This document shows, piece after piece, positions 12,003 through 63,182 of a DNA stretch of 64,000 nucleotides. Every line of letters starts with the position of its first letter. The stretch's first letter is position 1. The notes under the pieces are model-generated. The model saw only the letters and a list, made by a program, of their open reading frames with translations. It made no database searches and was not told the DNA's origin. Made by a program: the position numbers and the translations under genes. The DNA is taken from positions 128,856 to 192,855 of the forward strand of contig JACPJN010000006.1 in the NCBI GenBank assembly GCA_016187515.1. The letters run 5' to 3'. The DNA is from Candidatus Uhrbacteria bacterium. Its GTDB lineage: Bacteria > Patescibacteriota > Patescibacteriia > GWA2-47-26.

Positions 12003-12899
12003 TCAATCCCCCAGAGATCGTTCTCCTTGAACTACGCTGAATCCCCACTTTAACAATTTGGCCATATCTTGAAAGCGCGCATCGTTGGTTTCACTTCCCA
12101 ACACCACCGCCATGAGTTCACTGCCATAGCTGCGCGCGGCAAATACTAAATTATATTTACTCTCTTCGATATGTCCGGTTTTTCCTCCTAGAATCGGGCC
12201 GTCGGGAGGATTAAACCAGCGTAATAATTGATTAGTAGCGTGAACTTCTCGAGCGGCTTTGCCTTTTGGCGCAAATTGAAACGAGGACTTAAGAACCGCT
12301 TCGCGGATTGGCGCGTGGCTTAAACTAAAACGGGCCAAAGCGGCGACCTCCCGAGCGGTACCGACATTTTCCGCGCGAAGTCCGGTCGGATCGGCAAACT
12401 TTAAACTGCGCAAACCAAGTTTTTCGGCTTTAGCATTCATGGCCAAGACCCCCGCCGCCTCATCTCCCAAAAAACTGCGCGTGAGCAGCATCGCGGCGTC
12501 GTTGGAAGAGGCCGTAAGCATCAGGTTCCAAGCGTCAACGACCTTAAGCTGTTCTCCTGGAATGAGATAAGCAATATCGCCGTTACGGCGATCTTGTGCT
12601 TCAAAAGTTATAAGGCCATTCCAGTCCGGATTTTTATCCAGTAGCGCAAGCGCGGTCATTAGTTTAGTAATGCTCGCGATCGGCCGGACGGTATCCGCAT
12701 TCTTGGAGTGCAAAATTATTCCTTCCGTGGTATCCGCCAGAAACACGCTCTCGGCCGAGAGTGAAGGCAACTCCCCCGCTCCCCCTCTTAAGTTAAGAGG
12801 GGGTGGCCCGCCCGAGGCGGGTAGGGGGGCGTTATGCAACGTCTGCACGGCTAGAAATGCTCCCACCGCGGCAAATAAAGAAGCGAGCTGAAGAAGCAT
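12003..12899 (-). CDS. D-alanyl-D-alanine carboxypeptidase (peptidase S11, PBP5/6-like)
   Basis: SxxK (ASITKLMT), SxN (SSND) and KTG (GGKTG) motifs are in the correct order, with an N-terminal signal peptide. An in-frame palindromic insert at 12771-12832 (ccccctcttaagttaagaggggg) lies near the N-terminus. Confidence 0.8.
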   Translation of the reverse strand: MLLQLASLFAAVGAFLAVQTLHNAPLPASGGPPPLNLRGGAGELPSLSAESVFLADTTEGIILHSKNADTVRPIASITKLMTALALLDKNPDWNGLITFEAQDRRNGDIAYLIPGEQLKVVDAWNLMLTASSNDAAMLLTRSFLGDEAAGVLAMNAKAEKLGLRSLKFADPTGLRAENVGTAREVAALARFSLSHAPIREAVLKSSFQFAPKGKAAREVHATNQLLRWFNPPDGPILGGKTGHIEESKYNLVFAARSYGSELMAVVLGSETNDARFQDMAKLLKWGFSVVQGERSLGD

Positions 12900-13515: not shown

Positions 13516-13986
13516 CTACCTCTTTTTCTTAGGCAGATATTCTTCGTATTTTTTTCTTTCCGCCAGCTGCGCGTATTCTCGTTTGTAGTTTTTCAGCACA
13601 CCTTTCAAAATCACCGCAAACCAAGAAACGGTAATCAAAAAAATCAGCAGCGTCCACCCTCGCGCGGAAAGAATCACGGCGCCGACTTGTCTGGACCAAA
13701 TCAGTATCAGCATAAACGCCGCGAAAAACCAGAATGGACGGCTAAGTTTGGAAAGCCCGCGGGCCAGCGGCGGATTATCTTTTTTCCGGCGGCTTAATAT
13801 CTTAAAGACAATTCCCCCGCCAATAAACAAGGCCACGACAATAATCGCGGCAATAAAAGAAAACCGACGCAATGGCGGAGTATATACCGCAAACCAATAA
13901 GAGAGGTGCAATAGATTGGTAAATTGCATGCGAGTAGGTAAATCAAGTAAATTAAGTAAAGCAAGTAAATCAAGGGCTTGATTCAC
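13516..13986 (-). CDS. hypothetical membrane protein (about 4 TM helices)
   Basis: Hydrophobic segments FIAAIIVVALFIGGGIVF, FWFFAAFMLILIW and LLIFLITVSWFAVIL. No family recognised. Confidence 0.5.
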   Translation of the reverse strand: MNQALDLLALLNLLDLPTRMQFTNLLHLSYWFAVYTPPLRRFSFIAAIIVVALFIGGGIVFKILSRRKKDNPPLARGLSKLSRPFWFFAAFMLILIWSRQVGAVILSARGWTLLIFLITVSWFAVILKGVLKNYKREYAQLAERKKYEEYLPKKKR

Positions 13987-14567: not shown

Positions 14568-14608
14568 ACGATTGCAGTAAAGCAAGTAAATCAGGTAAAT
14601 CAAGTGAA

Positions 14609-15028
14609 TCAAATGCTTGATTTACTTGACTTGCTCGTCTCGCCTGATTTACTTAATTGATGAGTATTATCCTTCTGACTTTGAATCCATCGCCGTAATT
14701 TTTTACTTACCTCCCCTCCAAGCGCCTCAATACTAGTATACTGTGCTTTATCAATATAGCCAAGCTCACATGCGACCATCAGCTGATATCGTACCTCCTC
14801 TAAGGAAGCATCGGCAATATTGTAAAAGTGGAGACTATCATATACTGACTTTCTGTGAAAGCCCTCTACAATATTGGATGCTACAGATAGCGCGGCACGA
14901 CGTAGCTGTGATACAAGGCCGTACATCTCATGTGGTGGAAACTTTGCAGTAAGGCGATACACTTCTACCACAAGTTGATGTGCTTTCTGCCACACCTGTA
15001 AATCCCTAAAGGTACTGATCTGTGCCAT
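14609..15028 (-). CDS. four-helix-bundle protein (23S rRNA intervening-sequence protein / Avd-like family)
   Basis: FRDLQVWQKAHQLVVEVYRLTAKFPPHEMYGLVSQLRRAALSVASNIVEG matches the family consensus. The C-terminal tail (SKSGETSKSSKSS) is encoded by the TTGATTTACTTG repeat, so the true stop may lie earlier. Confidence 0.75.
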   Translation of the reverse strand: MAQISTFRDLQVWQKAHQLVVEVYRLTAKFPPHEMYGLVSQLRRAALSVASNIVEGFHRKSVYDSLHFYNIADASLEEVRYQLMVACELGYIDKAQYTSIEALGGEVSKKLRRWIQSQKDNTHQLSKSGETSKSSKSSI

Positions 15029-39153: not shown

Positions 39154-39453
39154 CTATTCCGGAATCATTTTTTCTGGATTCAAGAGTCCGCGCACCTTGT
39201 CTCGAATCCCTGCGGTGTTGGTGATGAAACCAAGCAAGGCCTGGTCAGCCCTCACCCCTTCAATCCGTCCGATGAGCTCTGCCGCAGGATAGTCACGGTG
39301 CCCCCCGGGGATGGTGTCAAACCCTTCAAGTACCTCATACAATAGATCAAAACTCGCAGCGCGCGAAACTGCTTCTTTTCTCTCTGGGGTCTGCCAGGCC
39401 TCAACCATGGCTGCCCTGGTCCCTTCTTCTGGTCGCATATTGTTAAACAGCAT
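39154..39453 (-). CDS. hypothetical protein
   Basis: 99-aa ORF. No family recognised. Confidence 0.35.
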   Translation of the reverse strand: MLFNNMRPEEGTRAAMVEAWQTPERKEAVSRAASFDLLYEVLEGFDTIPGGHRDYPAAELIGRIEGVRADQALLGFITNTAGIRDKVRGLLNPEKMIPE

Positions 39454-39481
39454 TGTATCAATACGTTCCTTTTTGTGTCAA

Positions 39482-39543
39482 GACCGCCAGCGGGGTTTTA
39501 AGTAAGATGATAAGGTCGAGCTTTAAGGACCAGTGTTCCATGT
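39482..39543. repeat. 62-bp direct repeat, copy 1 (a duplicate of the 3' terminus of the sugar-transferase gene)
   Basis: gaccgccagcggggttttaagtaagatgataaggtcgagctttaaggaccagtgttccatgt is identical apart from 1 nt to 40739-40800. In the minus frame it encodes MEHWSLKLDLIILLKTPLAV, which is the C-terminus of the 40715..42148 product. Confidence 0.8.
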
Positions 39544-39554
39544 GTGTTGGAAGT

Positions 39555-39920
39555 TTATGGCACAATACAAATAAGTGTGGGAATTTTTGTAAACTTCTTA
39601 TCGCGAGTTACGAGTGGTGCATGTGCTTGCAATGCAGTGGCTGCGATCACAGCATCCGCAGTGGCTAATGCATAGGTGCGTCGAATATGGGCTGCCTCAC
39701 GTGCAAGGGATGGCGTAAGGTCAAATAAGCTGGCGGATTGGAGGAATACCTCGATTTCTTGGGTGTGCGCCTCGGTGATGGCCGGGTACCCCAGTAATTC
39801 CACCACCACGATCGTAGGAAGTGCAATATCTTCGTCTAATCCCCTCGTATCAATACAATCCATGAGGGCTTGATCGTCACCGAGATATCCTATCACCGCG
39901 TTGGTATCGAGCATGAGCAT
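39555..39920 (-). CDS. vapC: PIN-domain toxin VapC
   Basis: MLMLDTNAVIGYL ... D..E ... TRDKKF carries the PIN acidic residues. It lies immediately downstream of the small antitoxin-like gene. Confidence 0.75.
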   Translation of the reverse strand: MLMLDTNAVIGYLGDDQALMDCIDTRGLDEDIALPTIVVVELLGYPAITEAHTQEIEVFLQSASLFDLTPSLAREAAHIRRTYALATADAVIAATALQAHAPLVTRDKKFTKIPTLICIVP

Positions 39921-39939
39921 AACAAAAACTTGCTACTGT

Positions 39940-40185
39940 TCAATGGGAAAGACGCGCATCACTCTCAGCTCGAATTCGCTGCTGATAAGCAAGGGGGTCT
40001 TCGGTAAGTTTGCCCTTAAGGAGTCCACGAAGTTTCCGGAGCGCTTCGTAATTACGAGGAATATGGGGCTCACGGGTTTTACTTACGCCTACCCGCTCCT
40101 TAAGACGATGCAGAAGCCGATCAATTTCATCAAGCTCAAGGCGTAGTTTGTCAGTATCAGTGGTTGTAGAAACAGAATGTTGCAT
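39940..40185 (-). CDS. antitoxin partner of VapC (81 aa)
   Basis: Small charged protein. Its stop lies 20 nt before the vapC start, giving the typical type II TA gene order. Confidence 0.55.
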   Translation of the reverse strand: MQHSVSTTTDTDKLRLELDEIDRLLHRLKERVGVSKTREPHIPRNYEALRKLRGLLKGKLTEDPLAYQQRIRAESDARLSH

Positions 40186-40294
40186 ATGTTGTTATCATAA
40201 CACGGGCAACTCTTTTTTGTCAAATTTTGAAATTTAAAAAAGCCCCGGCCGACGCGCACGCGATGTGCACACCGAACCAAGACGTAAGGACGAC

Positions 40295-40527
40295 CTATTC
40301 GCGTCGTAGCTTCTCCCATCGCGCCTCATGACGATCCGCGGCGCGCCATTCTAGGAGCGCAACCACGATCCCGCTCAGGGCACAGACGCTCATGAACTTT
40401 GCCAGCGCCCAGGCAAAGTCCGGGTCGATCTGGTGTTTCCGAAGCAGAACGACTTCCCAAGCAATTACGCCAAGCGAAAGGAAGAAAGCCACCATTCCGG
40501 CGATTGCCATGATGCGATGGTGAGACA
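40295..40527 (-). CDS. small membrane protein (77 aa, 2 TM)
   Basis: MSHHRIMAIAGMVAFFLSLGVIAWEVV ... SVCALSGIVVALLEW, with a GGAGGGTAC Shine-Dalgarno motif upstream. A further 42-aa membrane ORF (MTRTAQKRAMPGWFDVAWKISVALTYLYIANLLVPVLKRLAN) lies just upstream at 40542..40671. Confidence 0.45.
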
Positions 40528-40714
40528 TGGGTACCCTCCGATCTAGTTGGCCAGCCTCTTGAGGACTGGAACGAGCAAGTTGGCGATGTAGAGGTACGTA
40601 AGGGCGACGGAAATCTTCCACGCCACATCGAACCATCCTGGCATCGCTCGTTTCTGCGCTGTTCTTGTCATCTTGTCTCCTTGATGTACATCGTAACACA
40701 CAACGAGGCACCTG

Positions 40715-42148
40715 TCAATAAGTGCCTCGTTGTCCCGCGACCGCCAGCGGGGTTTTAAGTAAGATGATGAGGTCGAGCTTTAAGGACCAGTGTTCCATGT
40801 AGTAGGTATCCAAGCGCGTCTCTTCGTCAAACGAAAGATCAGCGCGGCCGGAGATTTGGGCCAGTCCGGTCATTCCGGGATTGATTCTCATAATTTTTTT
40901 CTGATGTTTTTCATACTGCGCAACCTCTTCTGGAAAATGCGGTCGCGGACCCACGAGAGACATTTTCCCCGCCAGCACTAAAAACAACTCCGGCAATTCA
41001 TCAATTGACCACTTGCGGATCAATCGGCCTACAGCCGTGATGCGCGGATCCTCGGTATCTTTGAATTTTACCAGCGGCCCTTTGCGGATATCCAAATGCT
41101 TAAGTTCTTTGTAGCGCATTTCATGGGTATCCGGTTTCATCGAACGAAACTTCACATATTGAAACCTCTTACCGCCCTGGCCCACGCGAGGATACTGAAA
41201 TAATATTGATCCTCGCGAGTCAAGTTTAATTGCCAGCGCGGTAAGGAGCATGATCGGGAAAGTAACAATAATCAAAAGTAACGCGCCGATAATATCAAAA
41301 ATCCGCTTATAAACTCTTCCCCAACCTTCGAGCCGCGTGCGCTTAATTTCCATAAGCGGCACCCCGGCCAGCGTATCAAACTCCAGTCCGGCGCCGTGCG
41401 TTGCCAGTACGTCGGCGGAATAACGAAACGCAAGATGGTACTCGTCGGCAAGATCAAGAATTCTATGCAAATCGTCCCCGCCGTTTTGGGAAAGCGCGAT
41501 AATCTGGTCTAATCCGCCCCGCGCGGCAAGCGCGCGCAACTGAAGTTCAGCATCTTTGTTTAATGTTTCTGCGTGGAATACCACTTTGAGTCCATACTTT
41601 GGATTATGCTTGATCATTCCCAGAAGCGCTTGCGCAGAAGATCCGCGGCCAATCACTGCCACGCACTGAAGTCCTACTCCGGCACGCAAGAGTCCACTGC
41701 GAACCACGCGCAGAATTATCCGAGCCATACTGACAAATACGATCGCAAATCCCCAGGATACTAAAAGAATGAACCGTGATTCAAACAATTCGCGGGAAAA
41801 CACGATTACGGCGAGCACCGCGCCAAGCCCGGCGGTGGAAGCCACCACCACCTTTTTAAACTCCTCCAGTTTTTTGCGTCGGCCAATGGTATACAGACCG
41901 GAAAGCGCGAAAATAATAATCCAGCCAAGCGCAATAAGCGCTGCCGCTTTCAGATACAGCTCAAAGGGCAAATTGAATATCACTGGCCGCCGAGCAACCG
42001 CAAATTCCGCATGACGCAGCGCATAAGCTGCAAGCGCGGCCAAAAGCAACGCCGCATAATCCAGAGGGACGAGAATCGTCGTAAAAAAGAGATCTAATCT
42101 CCGCATAAATGGTTGTTGTAGTGTATCATTGGTTAGACCGCTTGACAA
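40715..42148 (-). CDS. polyprenyl-phosphate sugar phosphotransferase (WbaP/bacterial sugar transferase family)
   Basis: N-terminal TM helices followed by the C-terminal catalytic domain KRIFDIIGALLLIIVTFPIMLL...SRGSILFQYPRVGQGGKRFQYVKFRSM...GPRP. Confidence 0.88.
   Translation of the reverse strand: MSSGLTNDTLQQPFMRRLDLFFTTILVPLDYAALLLAALAAYALRHAEFAVARRPVIFNLPFELYLKAAALIALGWIIIFALSGLYTIGRRKKLEEFKKVVVASTAGLGAVLAVIVFSRELFESRFILLVSWGFAIVFVSMARIILRVVRSGLLRAGVGLQCVAVIGRGSSAQALLGMIKHNPKYGLKVVFHAETLNKDAELQLRALAARGGLDQIIALSQNGGDDLHRILDLADEYHLAFRYSADVLATHGAGLEFDTLAGVPLMEIKRTRLEGWGRVYKRIFDIIGALLLIIVTFPIMLLTALAIKLDSRGSILFQYPRVGQGGKRFQYVKFRSMKPDTHEMRYKELKHLDIRKGPLVKFKDTEDPRITAVGRLIRKWSIDELPELFLVLAGKMSLVGPRPHFPEEVAQYEKHQKKIMRINPGMTGLAQISGRADLSFDEETRLDTYYMEHWSLKLDLIILLKTPLAVAGQRGTY
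40739..40800. repeat. 62-bp direct repeat, copy 2 (the native 3' terminus of the sugar-transferase gene)
   Basis: See 39482-39543. Confidence 0.8.
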
Positions 42149-42170
42149 GTACGGCGTAGTATGCTATACT
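42143..42170 (+). promoter_or_regulatory. sigma70-type promoter of rnpB (TTGACA - 16 nt - TATACT)
   Basis: cttgacaagtacggcgtagtatgctatact reads directly as a consensus -35/-10 pair. The transcript would start near 42177. Confidence 0.6.
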
Positions 42171-42177
42171 TGATTTT

Positions 42178-42963
42178 GTACCCTGAAAACCGGATGATCG
42201 CCCCCACACCTATCAGACACAGTGACGCACAGCGTCAAAACAGGACCTAGGTATACAGGTGTTGATGAAAAGCATCGTTTGCCAGTTGAACAAGACAGAC
42301 TTGCTTACTAGTGTCTGAAAGGTGTGGGGGAGGAAAGTCCGAACACCCCAACCAGTGCTTCGCACTGGAAATTCCAAGCACCAAGCACCAAATACCAAAA
42401 AAATCCCAAACTAAAAATTCCAAATCACAAACTTGGAATTTGGGATTTGGAGATTGAATATTGTCTGGAATTTGGAAATTGTGATTTGGGATTTCCAGCG
42501 CGGAGCGCTGGCGGAAGTAGGTACCAGCTAACGGCTGGGCATCCTGCTCGGCATAACACATAAAGCCGGCTGACGGATTAGTGCCACAGAGACAATACTA
42601 CCCCCACACCTATCAGACACTTTGGCGCGAAGCGCCACAAGAGCCTAACCATACGGAAGTTCTTGCTGAATACAACTGCCAGTCGAATAAGACAGGATGT
42701 GCATGTACAAGGTGCCTGAAAGGTGTGGGGGGAAAGGTGAAAAGTGAGGTGGTGTTTATCGCTTAATTCCACTCTAAAGGTGGCGTAAACGAGGAAGCTA
42801 CACCTCTTGCTCCCGAGTAATCGGGATGCGTGGAAAACCCTACCTGGTGCAAGTCGTATAACCGACGCATGAGGCCCCGCGTAAGCGGGGTCCCAGAGAG
42901 ATGATCATCCAGTCCCGCGGACGCGGGACGGACAGAATTCGGCTTACAGGTTTTCTTGGTACG
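42178..42963 (+). ncRNA. rnpB: RNase P RNA (bacterial type A core) with greatly expanded P3, P5.1-region and P12 helices (about 786 nt)
   Basis: CR-I GGAGGAAAGTCCGAACACC is at 42329. A P5.1-like UUCG hairpin ccagtgcttcgcactgg follows. Then CCAGCTAACGGCTGGG (a P8-like GNRA-type hairpin). Then AGTGCCACAGAGACAATAC (cf. E. coli AGUGCAACAGAGAGCAAAC). Then a CR-II-like GGTGAAAAGTGAGGTGG. CR-V ACAGAATTCGGCTTA is at 42932. P1/P2 pairing joins 5' GTACC/GAAAACC with 3' GGTTTTC/GGTAC. The expansions are 42201-42330 (P3 position), 42365-42500 and 42601-42731 (P12 position). Confidence 0.65.
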
Positions 42964-42969
42964 CAAAAA

Positions 42970-42996
42970 GACCCCGCAATCGCGGGGTCTTTTTTA
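42970..42996 (+). terminator. Rho-independent terminator of rnpB
   Basis: gaccccgcaatcgcggggtc followed by ttttttaat. Confidence 0.8.
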
Positions 42997-43006
42997 ATCG
43001 TTAAAA

Positions 43007-43321
43007 TTATTTTTCTCGCGCGCCTGCGCGGCGTGCGGCGTATCCGGAAAGCCGGGCTTGTAAAATTTCTCTGCGATCTTTTGCCTGTCGTAATTTATCC
43101 TCAACTTCTGCCAAATGGGCGGCGGCAACTTTTGTAACATCCCCTTGTTCTCTCCCGCGAATATTCGGACTCATTGGTTGCGGTTGCATCATGCGCTCCA
43201 AATTGAGAATTTCCTGTTCAACTCGCGCCAACTCATCCGCCACGCGCGCTTCAGCTTCATCCTCACTCATGCCTCCCCCCTCTACACTCATTACTTTTAG
43301 ATCGCGAGGTGTTTCACCCAT
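43007..43321 (-). CDS. hypothetical coiled-coil protein (104 aa)
   Basis: Charged, helical composition. Downstream partner of 43457..44122. Confidence 0.4.
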   Translation of the reverse strand: MGETPRDLKVMSVEGGGMSEDEAEARVADELARVEQEILNLERMMQPQPMSPNIRGREQGDVTKVAAAHLAEVEDKLRQAKDRREILQARLSGYAARRAGAREK

Positions 43322-43456
43322 AAATATGAAGTTTATGTCTTATGTTTGCATCTTATCAAATATCCGCTAAATTGTCAAATTAAAGCATCCCTACCGGTTT
43401 CCTTGGTACAATAAAATAACGGCCTTCATGGCCGCTATTTTCATTCTACCTATGAT

Positions 43457-44122
43457 CTATGATATGGTGGCCCGCACTACCCCACGCTGTCTGATCGTTC
43501 CGTCTTCATTCAAAACGGCGGCCTTCACTAAGTCCACGGTTTCGGCCATCAGATGGGGCGAACCACTTTCTTCCGCAAAAAATGCTGCCATGTTCGAATA
43601 CAAGGAATGTAGGGGTACGGCAAATTCTATCTTTCCTCTATCTGGTTGACGAACCGTAACCACCAGCACACCCGGATTATCCCCATGCACCCTGGTGCCC
43701 AAGAAATCCTGTCCCAAAGCTGACTTGAGATACGCATCCAACTTTTTGGGATCATTACGATTTATTCCACCTCTCTCATTGTAAAATGCTCTCCAACCCT
43801 GAAGTAATGCGACGGGAGTTAACACTTCTGCTGGGGGTCGTTCTGGGGGGCGTACTGAAGCAATTCCACTTCTCTCGGCAGGAGGACCGACGGCGAGCGG
43901 CTTGCGAAGATTGTTTAGTATTTGCTCGACACCGTCCCTCACTACCTGTTCTGGTATTTTGCTTAAATCCACCTTAAATAATCGTGCAAAATCATCCCTG
44001 ACCATTCTAACTAATCCTTTAAGCGCCTTTTCCGTCTCCGCCGGACTTGGTTCTGTTTCGCCGACCGGTAACGTATCTTGTTTTATTTCGGGCAGTGGAC
44101 CACCTGATCTTTCGGTTCGCAT
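43457..44122 (-). CDS. hypothetical protein, paralog of 46130..46741 (GWRAF(F/Y)NE..G ... VPLHSLYSN family)
   Basis: Shares LQGWRAFYNERGG...DPKKLD...G....V.....R..IEFAVPLHSLYSNMAAFF with the 46130 product. No known family recognised. Confidence 0.5.
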   Translation of the reverse strand: MRTERSGGPLPEIKQDTLPVGETEPSPAETEKALKGLVRMVRDDFARLFKVDLSKIPEQVVRDGVEQILNNLRKPLAVGPPAERSGIASVRPPERPPAEVLTPVALLQGWRAFYNERGGINRNDPKKLDAYLKSALGQDFLGTRVHGDNPGVLVVTVRQPDRGKIEFAVPLHSLYSNMAAFFAEESGSPHLMAETVDLVKAAVLNEDGTIRQRGVVRATIS

Positions 44123-44327
44123 AAAATTTAGGCAATTACTACTTATACCCTAATAGCACTCTTTCTCTAAAAAAGTCAAAGGGAAGTGAGTTCTGCTTGC
44201 GCCAACTCCGCTTGCGCTTTATTTTGGGCTGCTTTTGCTTCACGCGCGGCGGCAAGTTTTTCTTTTGGTGATGGGCGTTCTGTCATATATTGTCGCTCCT
44301 ATTCAGGTTATCGAAATATCGTGGTTA

Positions 44328-44573
44328 TTAGGTACTGGCCATGCTTAACCGCATCTCAATCTTGCCCACCCGCTCCTCAACCCGATCTACTTTTGAACGC
44401 AACGCGACCAGTTCCAAATCCAACGTCTCGTGAAGTTTTATGAATCCGTCAATATGGGTCAACATGCGATCTTCGGATGCTTGCATCTCTTCCTTAGTGG
44501 CGGTATGCTCACGCACATAGACATCCAGATCTATGAGTTTGATCAGTATCTTATTTAGTAATTCTTCAGACAT
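44328..44573 (-). CDS. hypothetical small coiled-coil protein (81 aa)
   Basis: Heptad-like charged sequence. No family recognised. Confidence 0.35.
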   Translation of the reverse strand: MSEELLNKILIKLIDLDVYVREHTATKEEMQASEDRMLTHIDGFIKLHETLDLELVALRSKVDRVEERVGKIEMRLSMAST

Positions 44574-44608
44574 AGGTTTACTTATTTCACTTTTATCATA
44601 TCATCCCT

Positions 44609-44695
44609 CATGTTTTTAGACAAGCCCCATCTTCTTCTTGACCTCCTGAGGGGTTTTTTGTGCCAGTGGTCGGGCGCGGCGCCGGATGTAATTAT
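44609..44695 (-). pseudogene. degenerate duplicate of the trpS 3' terminus (encodes IGYNYIRRRARPLAQKTPQEVKKKMGLV*)
   Basis: Compare genuine TrpS C-terminus KKARPIAQKTLEEVKKKMGLT*. The DNA is also similar: gacaagccccatcttcttcttgacctcctgaggggttttttg versus gtcaaccccatttttttcttcacctcctcaagagttttttg. Confidence 0.7.
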
Positions 44696-44970
44696 ATCCG
44701 ATCCATGTATCGGTAAATCCAATGGTGTGGTCCGACAGTCAAAAAATAGATAGTAGTCGTATCCTTAAAACGGAACAATACTCGATAATTTTCGTCAATA
44801 CGGAAACTCCACACCTCTTTAGCTTTAGGGTGGAGTTTTTCGGTATCCAGAGAAGTATGAAACGGATTGGCACGGAATAACGTTTCCCGCCGTTCTGCTT
44901 TCTTTTGAATGTGGAGTGGCAATTCCGAGTAGCGGCGCTCAAATTCCTCCGTATAGAAAATTGTAATCAC
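44692..44970 (-). CDS. RelE/ParE-family type II toxin
   Basis: KLHPKAKEVWSFRIDENYRVLFRFKDTTTIYFLTVGPHH matches the RelE/ParE core pattern (R..YR...R.....I.....GPH..Y). Preceded by a small antitoxin-size gene. Confidence 0.6.
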   Translation of the reverse strand: MITIFYTEEFERRYSELPLHIQKKAERRETLFRANPFHTSLDTEKLHPKAKEVWSFRIDENYRVLFRFKDTTTIYFLTVGPHHWIYRYMDRI

Positions 44971-44980
44971 ACGGCTACGG

Positions 44981-45187
44981 CTACGCGCGAAGATCGCGGA
45001 GACTTTTTAGCTTTCTGACTCGGCCAGCGCGAATATCTGCCTCCGCACGATCAATACTGGCAATAAATTCATTGCCAAAAAACCCCAAAGAATCAGCCAA
45101 TCGCTCAAAACCATGACGATCCATTTCCACAGAAATCTTTCTGGGGGTTTTCTGAATAATCGTAAGGGGTAGGGTGGTAGTGCTCAT
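44981..45187 (-). CDS. antitoxin partner of RelE/ParE toxin (68 aa)
   Basis: Small gene 11 nt upstream of the toxin gene on the same strand. Confidence 0.5.
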   Translation of the reverse strand: MSTTTLPLTIIQKTPRKISVEMDRHGFERLADSLGFFGNEFIASIDRAEADIRAGRVRKLKSLRDLRA

Positions 45188-45253
45188 ATTCTAACTACAG
45201 CGTATCACGCCATGCTTATGATGTCAACCCCGTAGTGAAAGTGCCGAACTTCT

Positions 45254-45300
45254 ACTACAGGGTCAATCCCATTTTCTTTTTCACCTCTGTCTTTTTTGGC
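45254..45300 (-). pseudogene. second degenerate duplicate of the trpS 3' terminus (encodes ...KKTEVKKKMGLTL*)
   Basis: gtcaatcccattttctttttcacctctgtcttttttgg aligns to the genuine trpS end at 46804-46850. Confidence 0.65.
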
Positions 45301-45316
45301 GGTAGATTTTTAGCAT

Positions 45317-46087
45317 TCATCCGCCGATCTCTTTGAGCAATCGAATAACGTCATTTCTAAGTCCGACATACTCTTCGTACGCGTTTTCATATGGCTGCAA
45401 TTCTGGTGACCGTTCAAAAGATTCCGGTTTCCTAGCTCGTCTAATCGACTTTTCTTTTGCAAGCGCTTCAACTTGTGGTTCGAGTGCGCGTAAACGCTCT
45501 AGAGCGGAAGAAAGCTCGCTCTGTAAAGTTGCCAGCTTCTCCGGAGACATATCTCCACGATTTTGTATAATCTCGTCGAGTTGTTCTCCCCGTAAACTTA
45601 CCTCTCCACTAGCTCGCATTTTCTTAACATCCTCAGAAGAAAGCTCGCCTTTCAATGCTGCAAGTACTTGCTCAGTGGTCCGTATATGGTCACGTTTAAA
45701 CGAGTCACCCGCTTGCTCCCACTGGGTCTGGAGATATTCTATATCTTCTGGCTTGTCCGGCGCCTTAAAAGCATGGTATGCCCATGTTCTCGCCCTATCT
45801 CGCAATGCTTCCATGCCTACTTTCGTGTCGAGATCGCTGGACTTGTCCTCGCGCCCCACCACCGCCGCCTTCATTTGTGCTTGCAGTTGTTTGCCTTCCT
45901 CCGATACTTGCCGTAAGAATTTTATATGGTCCGATACTCCGGGAGATTTTTTAAGTTCTTCCATAGCCCATTGATCACGGCCCCTAAAATCCCTCCGCAC
46001 TTCTTCCATGGTGCGCTCTGCGCGCTGTCCAACCATCTCTTGTTCTGCACGTTTTTGCATGCGCTCTTGGTCTTCAGGTCTTGACAT
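45317..46087 (-). CDS. hypothetical coiled-coil protein (256 aa)
   Basis: Highly charged with a predicted long helix. Downstream partner of 46130..46741. Confidence 0.4.
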   Translation of the reverse strand: MSRPEDQERMQKRAEQEMVGQRAERTMEEVRRDFRGRDQWAMEELKKSPGVSDHIKFLRQVSEEGKQLQAQMKAAVVGREDKSSDLDTKVGMEALRDRARTWAYHAFKAPDKPEDIEYLQTQWEQAGDSFKRDHIRTTEQVLAALKGELSSEDVKKMRASGEVSLRGEQLDEIIQNRGDMSPEKLATLQSELSSALERLRALEPQVEALAKEKSIRRARKPESFERSPELQPYENAYEEYVGLRNDVIRLLKEIGG

Positions 46088-46129
46088 AATTTTAGAGATT
46101 AAATTTTAACTCCCTACTTTCGCCTTTTT

Positions 46130-46741
46130 TCAGTGCACGCTGACCCTAACAAGCCCTCTCTTTTTAACTTCCCCATCCTCAAATTCCGCGGCCTCAAGTA
46201 AATCGTCAACTTCAGCTAACATTAGATTTGTTTTATCGTCTGCCTCAAAATGACTAGCAAAATTGGAATATAAGCTGTGGAGTGGCACTCCAAATATCCT
46301 CATCCTCTGACCCACGCGAACTTGTATTTGGGCAACACCAGGTTGACTATAATCCGGCCGAATACTAACCAAACGATCTCCCAATTTGCTCCGTAGTTCT
46401 TGCTCCAATTTTTTAATATCATTTTGATACCGTCCTTTTTCTGCATTAAAGAACGCTCGCCATCCTGTAAGAATCTCCGTTGGGGTACCTGCTTCTACGG
46501 ATTCGCGGACCTCAGCAGTGCTCCCACCTACATTTCCCAGCTTCGGCATTGTTTCCGTGCGCTTTCCTGAGCTAGCGCGTAACTGGGTCATCATTTCTGC
46601 TAGGCCGCGCTTAATTATCTCGTCTGGAATTGCGTCGTTCGGAATCCCCGCATTCATCGCGAGATACGAACGAATACTCTCCGTGGCTCTACCGCGGAGT
46701 TCTTCAATATAAGCGTCCTCTCCCTCCCTATGTTCTAACAT
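46130..46741 (-). CDS. hypothetical protein, paralog of 43457..44122
   Basis: LTGWRAFFNAEKGRYQNDIKKLEQELRSKLGDRLVSIRPDYSQPGVAQIQVRVGQRMRIFGVPLHSLYSNFASHF. See the paralog for details. Confidence 0.5.
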   Translation of the reverse strand: MLEHREGEDAYIEELRGRATESIRSYLAMNAGIPNDAIPDEIIKRGLAEMMTQLRASSGKRTETMPKLGNVGGSTAEVRESVEAGTPTEILTGWRAFFNAEKGRYQNDIKKLEQELRSKLGDRLVSIRPDYSQPGVAQIQVRVGQRMRIFGVPLHSLYSNFASHFEADDKTNLMLAEVDDLLEAAEFEDGEVKKRGLVRVSVH

Positions 46742-46803
46742 ATGTGGTTATGACTCATTAATTCAGTGTGGATGATTCAGTTGAATATACCAGCTTACCT
46801 TGC

Positions 46804-47862
46804 CTATGTCAACCCCATTTTTTTCTTCACCTCCTCAAGAGTTTTTTGAGCAATGGGACGAGCTTTTTTTGAACCGGCGTCAAGTACTTCTTCCACGTAT
46901 CCTTTCTTCTTCTCCAGTTCGCGACGGCGTTTTTGGATTGGCTCTAAAAATTTCACTACCGCTTCGGCAAGTCCCGCTTTAAACTCGGCATATCCTTTAC
47001 CCGCGTATTGTTTTTCAAGTTTAGAAATTGGCAGACCGGAAACTTCCGAGTAAATCGTAAGTAAATTGGTTAGCGCGGGTTTGTCGTTTCCGGATTTGAT
47101 CTCGCGGCCGGAATCGGTAACCGCGGTTTTTATTTTCTGCCGCACCTCATCCGAACTATCGGAAAGCGCAACGCCTTCATCACCTGTTTTGGACATTTTC
47201 TTTTTCGGATCTTTGAGCGACATGATGCGCGCGCCGTGTGTGAGCTCGGCTTTGACTGGAGGGAAAAACCCAGTGCTGTCATCCTGAGGAGTGGAACGAC
47301 GAAGGATCCCGTCCCTACTTCCACGGGATTCTTCGCTGCGCTCAGAATGACGAGATGGGGAAGCGAACATCCGATTAAACCGCCTCGCGATCATGTTCGT
47401 AAGTTCAATATGCGGAAGCTGATCCTCGCCAACCGGTACCAGATCGGCTTTGTAAATCAAAATGTCGGCGGCCATCAGCGCCGGATAGGCCAAAAGCCCC
47501 AAATTCACATATTCCGGGTGTTGCACGATTTTTTCTTTGTAGGTGGGCACGCGCTCAAACCAGGAAACCGGACTGATGGATTGAAAAATCCAGCCCAACT
47601 CCACATGCTCCGGCACCTGGGATTGCACGATAAGCGTCGCGCGCTTGGGATCAAGCCCGACCGCCAAATAATCCAGCGCCACCTCGCGCACATTTTCCCG
47701 CAGCTCCTCCGGCGAAAAAGGCGTGGTAATTGCGTGATAATCCACGATTGCATATATACAATCGTGCTTTTCTTGAAGCGTAATCCAATTTTTGATCGCG
47801 CCCAAATAGTTGCCGAGGTGCAGTCGGCCTGATGGGCGGATGCCGGAGAAAACACGGGTCAT
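46804..47862 (-). CDS. trpS: tryptophan--tRNA ligase
   Basis: HIGH region SGIRPSGRLHLGNYLG and KMSKS region KKMSKTGD. Contains a roughly 33-aa in-frame insertion (SPSRHSERSEESRGSRDGILRRSTPQDDSTGFF) encoded by a palindromic element at 47268-47345. Confidence 0.9.
   Translation of the reverse strand: MTRVFSGIRPSGRLHLGNYLGAIKNWITLQEKHDCIYAIVDYHAITTPFSPEELRENVREVALDYLAVGLDPKRATLIVQSQVPEHVELGWIFQSISPVSWFERVPTYKEKIVQHPEYVNLGLLAYPALMAADILIYKADLVPVGEDQLPHIELTNMIARRFNRMFASPSRHSERSEESRGSRDGILRRSTPQDDSTGFFPPVKAELTHGARIMSLKDPKKKMSKTGDEGVALSDSSDEVRQKIKTAVTDSGREIKSGNDKPALTNLLTIYSEVSGLPISKLEKQYAGKGYAEFKAGLAEAVVKFLEPIQKRRRELEKKKGYVEEVLDAGSKKARPIAQKTLEEVKKKMGLT
47268..47345. repeat. second palindromic insertion family (gtcatcctgag ... 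ctcagaatgac) in-frame in trpS
   Basis: Inverted termini gtcatcctgagg / cgctgcgctcagaatgac. A half-copy gtcatcccgagcgcagcgagggatc lies at 335-360 upstream of dprA. Confidence 0.55.
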
Positions 47863-47864
47863 AG

Positions 47865-48045
47865 ATTACAAATTGATAATTATTCTAATTATCCTAATTG
47901 ATCTAATTATTCTAAACAATGTCCAAGCACCTCACGCCCAAGGCGGATGCGCCTGAGGCGCAAAATCCCAATTTTGGTTATTGGATGTTGGGATTTGTTT
48001 AGGTCAATTAGAGTAATTAGGTGAATTAGGTCAATTCTCATTATA
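47865..48045. repeat. AATTAG-word low-complexity hairpin with a GC-rich loop insert; same family as 17913-18000
   Basis: ctaattatcctaattgatctaattattctaaac ... gcgcctgaggcgc ... ttgggatttgtttaggtcaattagagtaattaggtgaattagg. Confidence 0.55.
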
Positions 48046-62202: not shown

Positions 62203-63182
62203 ACGAATTCTCGGCGAGTGCCGCTTAAATCCTTAAACGCAATTTTCCGCGCATGCAACATGAGCCGGCTTGATTTACCTGTCTCGCTTGATTTACTTGA
62301 TTTACTGCGATACAGCGTATCGCCGACAATCGGATGCCCAATGGCTTTTAAGTGTACGCGAATCTGATGCGTCCGGCCAGTGCGGGTCCGGATCGCGAGA
62401 AATGTCACCCTCCCCTTCATCCCCTCCCATCGAGGGAGGGGGATCGTTTCGTACTCGGTCACGGCCTGTCTTCCCTTCCCCCCTTTTGGCCGCGCCACCA
62501 TCCGCGCGCCTTTGCGCGCCACGACAAATTCAATCACGCCCTGCGGCGGAATGACCGCGCCATTTACCGCCGCGACATATTCTTTTTCAACCTCATGCAT
62601 TTTAAATTGCTTTTTTAAATGATCAAACATATCCTGGGTACGGGCGATAACCATGACTCCGGAAACGTCGGCGTCAAGCCGATGCGCAATGCCCGGACGG
62701 ATTGGATCATCGCCGACTTTTCCAAGCTCGGGATACCGTGCCAGCAATCCATTAACCAGGGTATCCGGGGCTTTATGGCCTGCGCCTTGATGAACGACCA
62801 GGCCAGCGGGCTTGTTCACGACAATAAAATCCGGTTCTTCGTGGAGTACCCATGCCAGACCCCCTCTCACTCCCCCTCCGAGAGGGGGAGAAACAATTTT
62901 TCCTCCCCTGCCCGAGGGGAGGTAAGGAGGGGTGGGAGTACAATTAACGATTTGTACCTCCGGATTTGGCACCACCCGCAAATCCTCCGGTGGCTCGATT
63001 ACTGCCTCCACCTCATCACCCATGCGTAAAAAATGGTGCGGCGTGATGCGTTTGCTGTTTACCGTAACTTGTCCGTCTTTGACCATCCTTTGCAAATGCG
63101 CGCGCGAAAACTCCGGCAAATATTCTTTCAGAAACTTGTCGAGTCGTTGACCTTGATGTTCAATCGTAATTAAGAAATCCAT
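62172..63182 (-). CDS. RluA-family 23S rRNA pseudouridine synthase (RluD-like) with N-terminal S4 domain
   Basis: S4 region RLDKFLKEYLP. Catalytic motif HRLDADVSGVMVIARTQ. Two in-frame repeat-derived inserts: the GC-rich palindromic element at 62860-62938 and the TTGATTTACTTG repeat at 62265-62310 (encoding SKSSKSSETGKSS). A further GC-rich tract lies at 62404-62475. Confidence 0.85.
   Translation of the reverse strand: MDFLITIEHQGQRLDKFLKEYLPEFSRAHLQRMVKDGQVTVNSKRITPHHFLRMGDEVEAVIEPPEDLRVVPNPEVQIVNCTPTPPYLPSGRGGKIVSPPLGGGVRGGLAWVLHEEPDFIVVNKPAGLVVHQGAGHKAPDTLVNGLLARYPELGKVGDDPIRPGIAHRLDADVSGVMVIARTQDMFDHLKKQFKMHEVEKEYVAAVNGAVIPPQGVIEFVVARKGARMVARPKGGKGRQAVTEYETIPLPRWEGMKGRVTFLAIRTRTGRTHQIRVHLKAIGHPIVGDTLYRSKSSKSSETGKSSRLMLHARKIAFKDLSGTRREFVCPEPEEFLL
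62860..62938. repeat. GC-rich composite palindromic element, near-identical to 35622-35706
   Basis: gaccccctctcactccccctccgagagggggagaaacaatttttcctcccctgcccgaggggaggtaaggaggggtgggag. Confidence 0.75.

Follow-up and report, generated by a model that had tools for sequence, protein, structure and literature searches.

The last 9-26 codons of trpS occur three times in the genome of a Candidatus Uhrbacteria bacterium, within a stretch of 64,000 nucleotides (nt) referred to here as the window (assembly GCA_016187515.1, contig JACPJN010000006.1, positions 128,856 to 192,855). One occurrence is the functional end of the gene (copy A), the other two are orphan copies (B and C), and together they bracket a 3.8-kb stretch of low GC that lies between trpS and rnpB, the gene for RNase P RNA. 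Each of the cassettes inserted here is preceded by a complete or partial trpS terminus, and it is very probable that the stretch was built by serial import, with a replacement trpS end brought in at each event. The fuller account offered here, to which an even chance may be given, is that the trpS-rnpB stretch is a hot spot of recombination at which three or more small cassettes have accumulated through the general recombination of the host.

trpS is on the minus strand (46804-47862) and encodes a protein of 352 amino acids (aa) that matches Pfam tRNA-synt_1b (E=4e-66), ends in ...KARPIAQKTLEEVKKKMGLT and is 72-76% identical to the TrpS of other Uhrbacteria-like contigs. Copy C, ending in ...RRARPLAQKTPQEVKKKMGLV, begins 5 nt past the stop codon of a toxin gene and matches trpS over 20-26 codons, its coding part (about 44616-44686) being found by tblastn with E=4e-6 in about 600 kb of sequence and having 76% nt identity to copy A over 51 nt. 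Copy B, ending in ...PPKKTEVKKKMGLTL, is identical to A at 23 of 26 nt, and a second match of this quality was found in none of 100 shuffles of the window. Both orphan copies are intergenic, lie in the same orientation as trpS and have a stop codon at the homologous position; a tblastn search of the 64-kb window found no further copy. A first-pass annotation of the same DNA, made from the letters alone, had already proposed three copies of the trpS end, and translation, tblastn for C and the shuffles for B agree with it. Its reading of the copies as QKT.EVKKKMGL(T/V) and a stop does not hold for B, which reads KKT and ends in GLTL followed by two stops.

The shared peptide EVKKKMGL is rich in lysine and several of the proteins encoded in the island are Lys/Glu-rich coiled coils, thus the copies could be thought of as chance matches of low-complexity sequence, a possibility the annotation had itself raised. 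The length and E value of the match to C and the shuffle statistics for B rule this out, and the intergenic position, the trpS orientation, the homologous stop and the recurrence of the same arrangement at trpS in three further loci (L008, L019 and L060) all speak against it, so that it is almost certainly wrong. An assembly artefact was also considered and is ruled out by the agreement of independent assemblies, as Logan contigs from separate sequencing runs of the same organism have the same arrangement. Of these L001 covers trpS through to the gene for a 104-aa protein, L002 and L003 do so without most or part of trpS, both toxin-antitoxin genes are called in L004 and two further contigs are shorter; all are identical, with no population variant that is without a module among them.

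The coding sequence of trpS has a feature of its own, an in-frame insertion of about 35 residues (ASPSRHSERSEESRGSRDGILRRSTPQDDSTG, at about 47270-47365) that is encoded by a nested imperfect palindrome (GTCATCCTGAGG ... CGAAGGATCCCGT / ACGGGATTCTTCG ... CTCAGAATGAC). Different insertions are found at the same position in L028 and L007 and none in L030, L008 and L032; it looks like a small palindromic element that is tolerated within coding sequence.

The copies are the ends of different trpS alleles that have diverged under purifying selection. Between A and C 12 of the 18 differences are at third codon positions (p=0.004), between A and B all four are, each of them synonymous (last 9 codons, p=0.012), and for the functional end and the remnant of L008 the count is 17 of 27 (p=0.0015); pooled over six pairs it is 45 of 77 (p=5e-6). 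This bias indicates that the copies diverged whilst serving as coding ends, and therefore that two or more of the three originated in other genomes. A phylogeny of the 57-nt ends contained no signal as to which copy is native.

The copies divide the island into modules. Module 1, between A and B, has the genes for a 203-aa protein and a 256-aa helical protein; module 2, between B and C, has a toxin-antitoxin pair; module 3, beyond C, includes a 221-aa paralog of the 203-aa protein. As modules 1 and 3 each have a member of the 203/221-aa family together with a helical protein, in the same order and orientation, local tandem duplication of a unit of trpS end, 2xx-aa gene and coiled-coil gene followed by divergence might be suspected. 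This is very unlikely. The paralogy that the annotation had proposed for the 203-aa and 221-aa proteins is real, but at 36% identity they are far less alike than the non-coding trpS remnants, which are 70-88% identical to the functional end. Furthermore the differences between copies are mostly synonymous, unlike those expected from neutral decay, module 2 is unrelated to the others, and the 256-aa protein shows no detectable relationship to the 104-aa protein. The codon-position test, together with the low identity of the paralogs, thus rules out the decay of a local duplicate.

A relative with an empty site, the comparison that had been recommended for this locus, is found in L030 and L029, whose TrpS is 73% identical to that of the window. 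Here rnpB starts (10508) 30 nt past the trpS stop (10477), in the orientation of trpS, with a sugar transferase gene coming next. The order of trpS, rnpB and the sugar transferase gene is also kept in L008 and L028, and is the ancestral one, with 30 nt between trpS and rnpB. Each close relative holds a different small insert behind trpS. The insert between trpS and rnpB is 650 bp in L008, with a gene for a 128-aa helical protein on the opposite strand, and 1.2 kb in L028, with a gene for a 250-aa protein. In L059 trpS is followed by what was recognised by eye in translation, with no Pfam scan, as a HicAB-like pair, so that a toxin-antitoxin pair probably follows trpS there too, and in L032 by a different and oppositely oriented gene; on these two short contigs rnpB was not found. 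The island has a GC content of 44-49% compared with 49-57% in its flanks. The different inserts in each relative and the low GC of the island point to a hot spot at which accessory DNA of varying content lies between conserved genes, and the window, L008, L028 and L030 do have conserved flanking core genes with differing content between them.

The duplication of the trpS end can be explained by selection alone, because the -35 box of rnpB lies within the last codons of trpS. All promoters referred to here are consensus matches only. In L030 the rnpB promoter is TTGACA, N17, TATACT, in which TTGACA forms the Leu and Thr codons that are the last two sense codons of trpS, and the same promoter precedes rnpB in L008, L028 and the window. 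With trpS and rnpB both essential and overlapping in this manner, only those insertions that supply a new trpS end would be viable, and the old end, together with its promoter, would stay joined to whatever gene is downstream. The requirement for a duplicated trpS end would therefore be one of selection, whatever the enzyme involved.

Displaced ends would in this way persist as promoters, and A, C and the stub before rnpB all retain -35 and -10 boxes. At copy A the promoter-like site is TTGACA (46812-46807), N17, TATATT (46789-46784), matching at 11 of 12 positions with TG before the -10 box, facing the 203-aa gene and having its -35 box formed by Leu and Thr codons just as in L030; at copy C it is TTGTCT (44623-44618), N17, TATGAT (44600-44595), with 9 of 12 and TG, facing the 81-aa gene. 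In copy B the promoter scan found no good -10 box. The 104-aa gene has a site of its own (TTGACA at 43378, N17, TAAGAT; 10 of 12, with TG). A strong -35 box over the stop codon is found in three of 57 window genes where 0.4 would be expected, and the genes whose ends are duplicated account for two of the three.

The annotation had the gene content of three modules right, yet three copies bound only two modules. The promoter stub of rnpB (gcTTGACA, 42140-42147) is likely to be a fourth and minimal copy, inverted together with rnpB; of trpS itself only the gc before TTGACA remains. rnpB is adjacent to the island, and its orientation in the window is opposite to that of trpS and the sugar transferase gene, whereas in L030, L008 and L028 it is on the trpS strand. 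Its promoter in the window is TTGACA (42142), N17, TATACT (42170), with a match of 11 of 12.

trpS is not the only gene here with a duplicated end. The 3' end of rnpB (42943-42962) recurs at 43390-43409 with 17 of 20 nt identical, where 0.01 such matches would be expected by chance, a different hairpin terminator follows each copy, and the two bracket the 104-aa gene and its promoter-like site. In L028, between the 250-aa gene and the rnpB promoter (12020-12215), there are pieces resembling an inverted rnpB 3' end (GTACCAAGGAAACCTGTAAGG, GTAAGCCGAATTCTGT), which suggests past rearrangements of rnpB in that lineage too.

The sugar transferase gene provides the third case. Its functional 3' end (40715-40800) has TTGACA (40718-40713) over the stop codon, which is also spanned by a 14-bp hairpin (z=-4.5). 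An orphan copy of this end is found 1.17 kb downstream, behind a cassette that includes a VapBC-like pair with a PIN-domain toxin (Pfam PIN, E=9.5e-17), and the toxin-antitoxin pair is directly before the distal remnant here just as it is at trpS. The two ends are identical at 61 of 62 nt over one block and then at 15 of the last 24 nt. The remnant has a promoter-like site, TTGACA (39481-39476), N18, TACAAT (39457-39452), facing a gene for a 99-aa protein (39154-39453). In L028 the site is empty, the sugar transferase gene being directly followed by a homolog of the 99-aa gene. Two short partial contigs, L064 and L065, have homologous VapBC-like pairs at the same locus, with PIN homologs that are 69-72% identical, followed by a 12-14-nt piece of the sugar transferase end. 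The presence of these PIN homologs at the same locus implies that the insertion is old, and the 61/62 block in the window is probably the result of later gene conversion or re-import. End duplication is thus found at three different termini within 9 kb, those of trpS, the sugar transferase gene and rnpB, and inspection showed no core shared among them. What resembles this end duplication in miniature is seen in L028 (8040-8170), where 47 nt beyond a 331-aa gene its last 12 codons (VGACLRVLPRKR) occur again (VGAALRVLPRKR) and a short motif, GCCGCATATTG, is likewise repeated.

Orphan ends were looked for more widely by searching for the last 30 residues of each gene downstream of that gene, in 46 loci comprising 630 kb and 504 open reading frames (ORFs). 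The only matches were the trpS of the window, of L008 and of L019 (Wildermuthbacteria), and the sugar transferase of the window. Measured in codons from the stop, the left boundary of the trpS remnant is at -26 for copy C, -13 to -15 for copy B, -24 in L008, -29 in L019 and -22 in L060, and at only -2 (gcTTGACA) for the rnpB promoter of the window and of L028. The insert of L019 consists of a PaaX/Cas2-like gene and a phosphomannomutase (PMM) gene that is cut to domains III-IV at the junction. In L011 the PMM gene is intact and lies next to trpS as its native, convergent neighbour, thus the inserted DNA looks like the region downstream of trpS in a related chromosome. In L060 the insert is a single membrane ORF that runs directly into the remnant. 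The truncated PMM gene and this fused ORF fit illegitimate distal junctions, and with them junctions inside genes and cargo from the chromosomes of relatives, as would be expected at a recombination hot spot, are both present (L019, L060).

trpS itself appears to be a mosaic when compared with that of L008, nt identity being 98%, then 65%, 85-88% and 66% in turn; L008 is a co-assembled bin and the identical stretch is at a contig end. This stretch is the first 54 aligned nt (trpS codons 58-75), after which identity falls to 65%, and the bin is labelled Gammaproteobacteria. The stretch may be read as a tract of recombination or else as a chimeric end of the contig.

The mechanism that may be proposed is as follows. 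Incoming DNA would be the trpS-downstream region of related bacteria, taken up and joined to the chromosome by the general recombination of the host rather than by an integrase encoded on the island. One junction would be anchored by homology in the conserved 3' region of trpS and the other would be illegitimate or of short homology, with the same process acting at the 3' ends of the sugar transferase gene and rnpB. General recombination is favoured because there are three targets within 9 kb, no recombinase was found, junctions are inside genes, the cargo of L019 is chromosomal, the boundaries vary and trpS appears mosaic; that the enzymology was general recombination of the DNA of relatives is nevertheless a tentative assignment, put at even or slightly less. 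The process resembles homology-facilitated illegitimate recombination after DNA uptake, in which foreign DNA is joined by a homologous crossover on one side and by an illegitimate junction on the other (PMC3240628). The truncated PMM gene of L019, the fused ORF of L060 and the lack of recombinase genes among those searched are all in keeping with it.

A number of observations weigh against this account. The left boundaries are not identical but are clustered, with four of the five trpS remnants starting within -22 to -29 codons in three different lineages, which homology-facilitated illegitimate recombination does not predict. Nor, to our knowledge, have repeated additive events at one site that leave serial displaced gene ends been described as an outcome of it. 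Orphan ends are found at three of 39 trpS genes compared with one of 465 other genes (p=0.0016), or without the window at two of 38 compared with none of 411 (p=0.007), with a scan at the nucleotide level adding L060 as a fourth trpS case; the samples behind the enrichment and the boundaries are small and the loci were chosen through trpS. In each of the two youngest events an identical block forms the left edge and a diverged tail comes after it (28/28 then 29/42 in L019, 61/62 then 15/24 at the sugar transferase gene), and these blocks look like either an att core or the trace of homologous crossing over within a short stretch of identity. Most cassettes end 0-17 nt from a stop codon, a homolog of a cargo gene with 71% identity adjoins a tRNA gene, and no donor genome was identified for any module.

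Several of these observations would be explained if the modules were decayed site-specific elements of the type known as cis-mobilizable elements (CIMEs), with integrases that are encoded elsewhere or since deleted and that target the conserved 3' region of trpS. The attP of each element would have mimicked the trpS end, and integrase and transfer genes would later have been lost in streamlined genomes, with addictive or useful cargo being kept. Direct repeats of the target 3' end do bracket the modules and a relative does have the empty site; the enrichment at trpS extends across lineages of the candidate phyla radiation (CPR), the boundaries cluster, the left-edge blocks resemble a crossover core and a cargo homolog adjoins a tRNA gene. 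There are also precedents, as tandem ssrA arrays occur in Dehalococcoides with about half of the islands being without an integration module (PMC3146451), and streptococcal CIMEs follow a route of integration, decay and accretion (PMC5704250). Flanking att-like repeats without integration or transfer genes, the mark of a CIME, are present, and of the features expected in an integrative element the flanking 3'-end repeats and the unoccupied site were found and an encoded recombinase was not.

Pfam and PADLOC found no recombinase family in the seven to eight main island proteins, in agreement with the statement of the annotation that the island has no integrase or transposase, and the island has no tRNA, as had also been said. 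No integrase, transposase or resolvase was found in 30 further window proteins, no recombinase in the VapBC cassette behind the sugar transferase gene, and none was evident beside the inserts of L008, L019, L028 and L060. The search in this genome covered 64 kb, and an integrase acting in trans would fall outside it, which again counts against general recombination. A PHROGs scan of 117 ORFs downstream of trpS at 39 loci returned one integrase family with two member hits; one member was traced by motif search to a serine recombinase in L017, and the second was not identified. The serine recombinase gene overlaps a tRNA-like sequence 2.3 kb from trpS, on DNA that is absent from the sister contig L040, and belongs to a tRNA-linked element. 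Among 2.9 million viral contigs there was neither a mimic of the trpS end (two DNA patterns) nor a relative of the 203/221-aa or 256-aa proteins, no remnants of genes from integrative and conjugative elements (ICEs) or integrative and mobilizable elements (IMEs) were found in the island, and a literature search on trpS as an attachment site gave nothing relevant.

The decay of site-specific elements is thus possible, although somewhat improbable. Against it are the lack of a recombinase gene in the five inserts inspected and the 30 other window proteins, the only integrase-family match to be traced being tRNA-linked, the three targets with no common core seen on inspection, a boundary that ranges from -2 to -29 codons, distal junctions that cut genes in L019 and L060, and cassettes of 0.45-1.5 kb that have no room for arm sites, besides the empty viral searches. 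The annotation had seen in the locus repeated insertion at a single att site by site-specific recombination. That insertion was repeated and serial and re-created the 3' end each time agrees with the empty site, the differing inserts, the third-position differences and the orphan ends elsewhere; the single att site and the site-specific enzyme are not supported by the three targets within 9 kb, the variable boundaries, the junctions inside genes and the searches for a recombinase.

It might also be asked whether the locus is an integron-like cassette array, with the trpS-end copies as sites of the attC type, given that the cassettes are small and co-oriented, include a toxin-antitoxin pair and have a repeat of 45-85 nt between them. 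Copies A, B and C and the sugar transferase remnant fold no better than shuffled sequences (z -1.0 to +0.7), no IntI-like tyrosine recombinase turned up in the window proteins that were scanned, trpS and rnpB form the two limits of the array, and the repeats consist of the coding end of the adjacent gene and are different for each of the three targets. It is therefore highly improbable.

The genes carried by the modules are listed in the table with the other features. The 203-aa protein of module 1 returned only itself from a word search of 5.8 billion proteins, and its profile found 15 proteins among 1.84 billion representatives, with a common C-terminal domain of about 100 aa. Nine of 13 distant relatives were scanned and these have no informative Pfam domain, and an AlphaFold model, built from two sequences, has a pLDDT of 52. 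The 256-aa protein has a 30% identical homolog in the 250-aa protein immediately 3' of trpS in L028. Homologs with 71% identity occur in other contexts, one of them 170 nt past a tRNA gene. A homolog with 71% identity is on a 1.2-kb contig, L062, that has 45-nt terminal inverted repeats (1-45 and 1133-1177), which may be an assembly artefact or the real ends of an element. In module 2 the 68-aa ORF stops 10 nt before the start of the toxin gene, and the toxin has further matches to ParE_like, ParE_toxin and YoeB below the Pfam cut-off. Module 2 therefore has what defines a type II toxin-antitoxin system, a toxin of known family with a small gene directly upstream, the antitoxin being without a family match. 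Toxin-antitoxin cassettes are over-represented at these sites, and a plausible reason is that they would make it costly for the cell to lose an insert when its flanking repeats recombine.

Features of the trpS-rnpB island and of the neighbouring sugar transferase locus, in window coordinates
Feature	Position	Strand	Basis
Copy A, functional trpS terminus (last 26 codons and stop 46804-46806)	46784..46884	-	translation; overlaps promoter-like site
Module 1 gene 1, 203-aa protein, no assigned function	46130..46741	-	no Pfam or PADLOC match
Module 1 gene 2, 256-aa helical protein, no assigned function	45317..46087	-	no Pfam match
Copy B, orphan trpS terminus	45255..45302 (approx.)	-	nt identity to A, with 3 nt deleted
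Module 2, 68-aa putative antitoxin	44981..45187	-	no Pfam match; assignment by position only
Module 2, 92-aa RelE/HigB/ParE-type toxin	44692..44970	-	Pfam HigB-like_toxin 28.1 bits (cut-off 27)
Copy C, orphan trpS terminus (stop 44616-44618)	44595..44686 including promoter-like site	-	tblastn, nt identity
Module 3, 81-aa helical protein	44328..44573	-	ORF; only DUF3287, sub-threshold
Module 3, 36-aa Ala/Lys-rich ORF	44176..44286	-	gene call in independent assemblies
Module 3, 221-aa paralog of 203-aa protein	43457..44122	-	BLASTP 36% identity over 169 aa, E=1e-32
Orphan rnpB 3' end with its own hairpin terminator	43390..43434	+	copy 43390-43409, terminator 43420-43434
104-aa helical protein gene and promoter-like site	43007..43378	-	ORF; bracketed by two rnpB 3'-end copies
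rnpB (RNase P RNA)	42140..42995	+	Rfam RF00010, 106.9 bits at 42446-42962; terminator 42969-42995
Sugar transferase gene	40690..42148 (ORF 40715-42148; start probably ATG 42103)	-	ORF; homologs in L008, L028, L030
Cassette behind sugar transferase gene	39555..40711	-	138-aa membrane-like ORF 40295-40711; 81-aa putative antitoxin 39940-40185; PIN-domain toxin 39555-39920
Orphan sugar transferase end (last 28 codons and stop)	39452..39544 (repeat 39461-39544)	-	tblastn E=2e-13; 1.17 kb downstream

Alignment of the rnpB of the window with that of L030, L028 and L008 places its 5' end near 42177 and the conserved GAGGAAAGTCCG motif at 42329, upstream of the start of the Rfam match at 42446, giving an RNA of about 790 nt with two large insertions (about 42195-42325 and 42350-42505). 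The first insertion is a long hairpin with arms (CCCACACCTATCAGACAC ... GTGTCTGAAAGGTGTGGGGG) that nearly repeat the arms of the hairpin of the P12 region (42601-42731), and looks like an internal duplication of a helix. Elsewhere in the window runs of an AT-rich motif of the type TAATTAG/ATCTAATT are found in the spacers 47863-48040, 13923-13964, 14578-14651 and 62260-62316, which may be a dispersed intergenic repeat and which gave spurious mutual peptide matches (LIYLIYLL...).

Patescibacteria, or CPR bacteria, have genomes of roughly 1 Mb with few recognisable mobile elements, and how they gain accessory genes is little known. The locus provides a concrete and repeated route of gene gain, in which small cassettes are placed behind conserved genes and each event is recorded as a displaced gene end. 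Should the route need no integrase, it would represent a separate means by which cassette arrays are built, and orphan gene ends would be a simple marker of horizontally acquired genes in these genomes; if the modules are decayed integrative elements, trpS would be an attachment site used across several CPR lineages. It may be speculated further that CPR bacteria build integron-like cassette arrays without a dedicated integrase, where a promoter in the last codons of the previous gene forces a replacement 3' end, the displaced ends act as ready promoters, toxin-antitoxin cassettes lock the additions in place and trpS is preferred across several CPR lineages. Taken as a whole this is unlikely, though by no means far-fetched.

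The locus may finally be set beside systems that are already known. Islands of the SGI1 type have an integrase and an excisionase of their own and measure tens of kb. As with SGI1 at trmE, the target here is the 3' end of a conserved housekeeping protein gene (PMC8409611). Like integron arrays the locus has short co-oriented cassettes, toxin-antitoxin pairs among them, with a repeated site between, but unlike them no IntI gene was found, there is no folding of the attC type and a promoter-like site lies in the repeat before each cassette.

Closer in design are the ssrA islands of Dehalococcoides, which are also serial islands 3' of one essential single-copy gene, bounded by repeats of its 3' end (PMC3146451). 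Sixteen of these encode a serine recombinase (DsiB) next to attL, and 15 are without an integration module and have been proposed to be cis-mobilizable (PMC3146451). The ssrA islands have a near-exact 20-bp repeat with one inferred crossover position and are many kb long (PMC3146451), whereas the repeats of the window are diverged alleles of a coding end, 45-87 nt in length, with modules of 0.45-1.5 kb and a recombinase in none. Streptococcal elements integrate and decay to CIMEs, with new elements then integrating alongside (PMC5704250), and the island is like these CIMEs in being without an integrase, in keeping attL/attR-like ends and in its tandem arrangement at a gene 3' end that is restored each time (PMC5704250). 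By definition a CIME descends from an ICE or IME and has att sites on which the integrase of a related element can act (PMC5704250); the island of the window differs in that neither an integrase nor any ICE or IME remnant was found in it. The locus shares the architecture of ssrA islands and CIMEs, but its modules are very small, its repeats differ from theirs in length and divergence, and the repeat overlaps a promoter.

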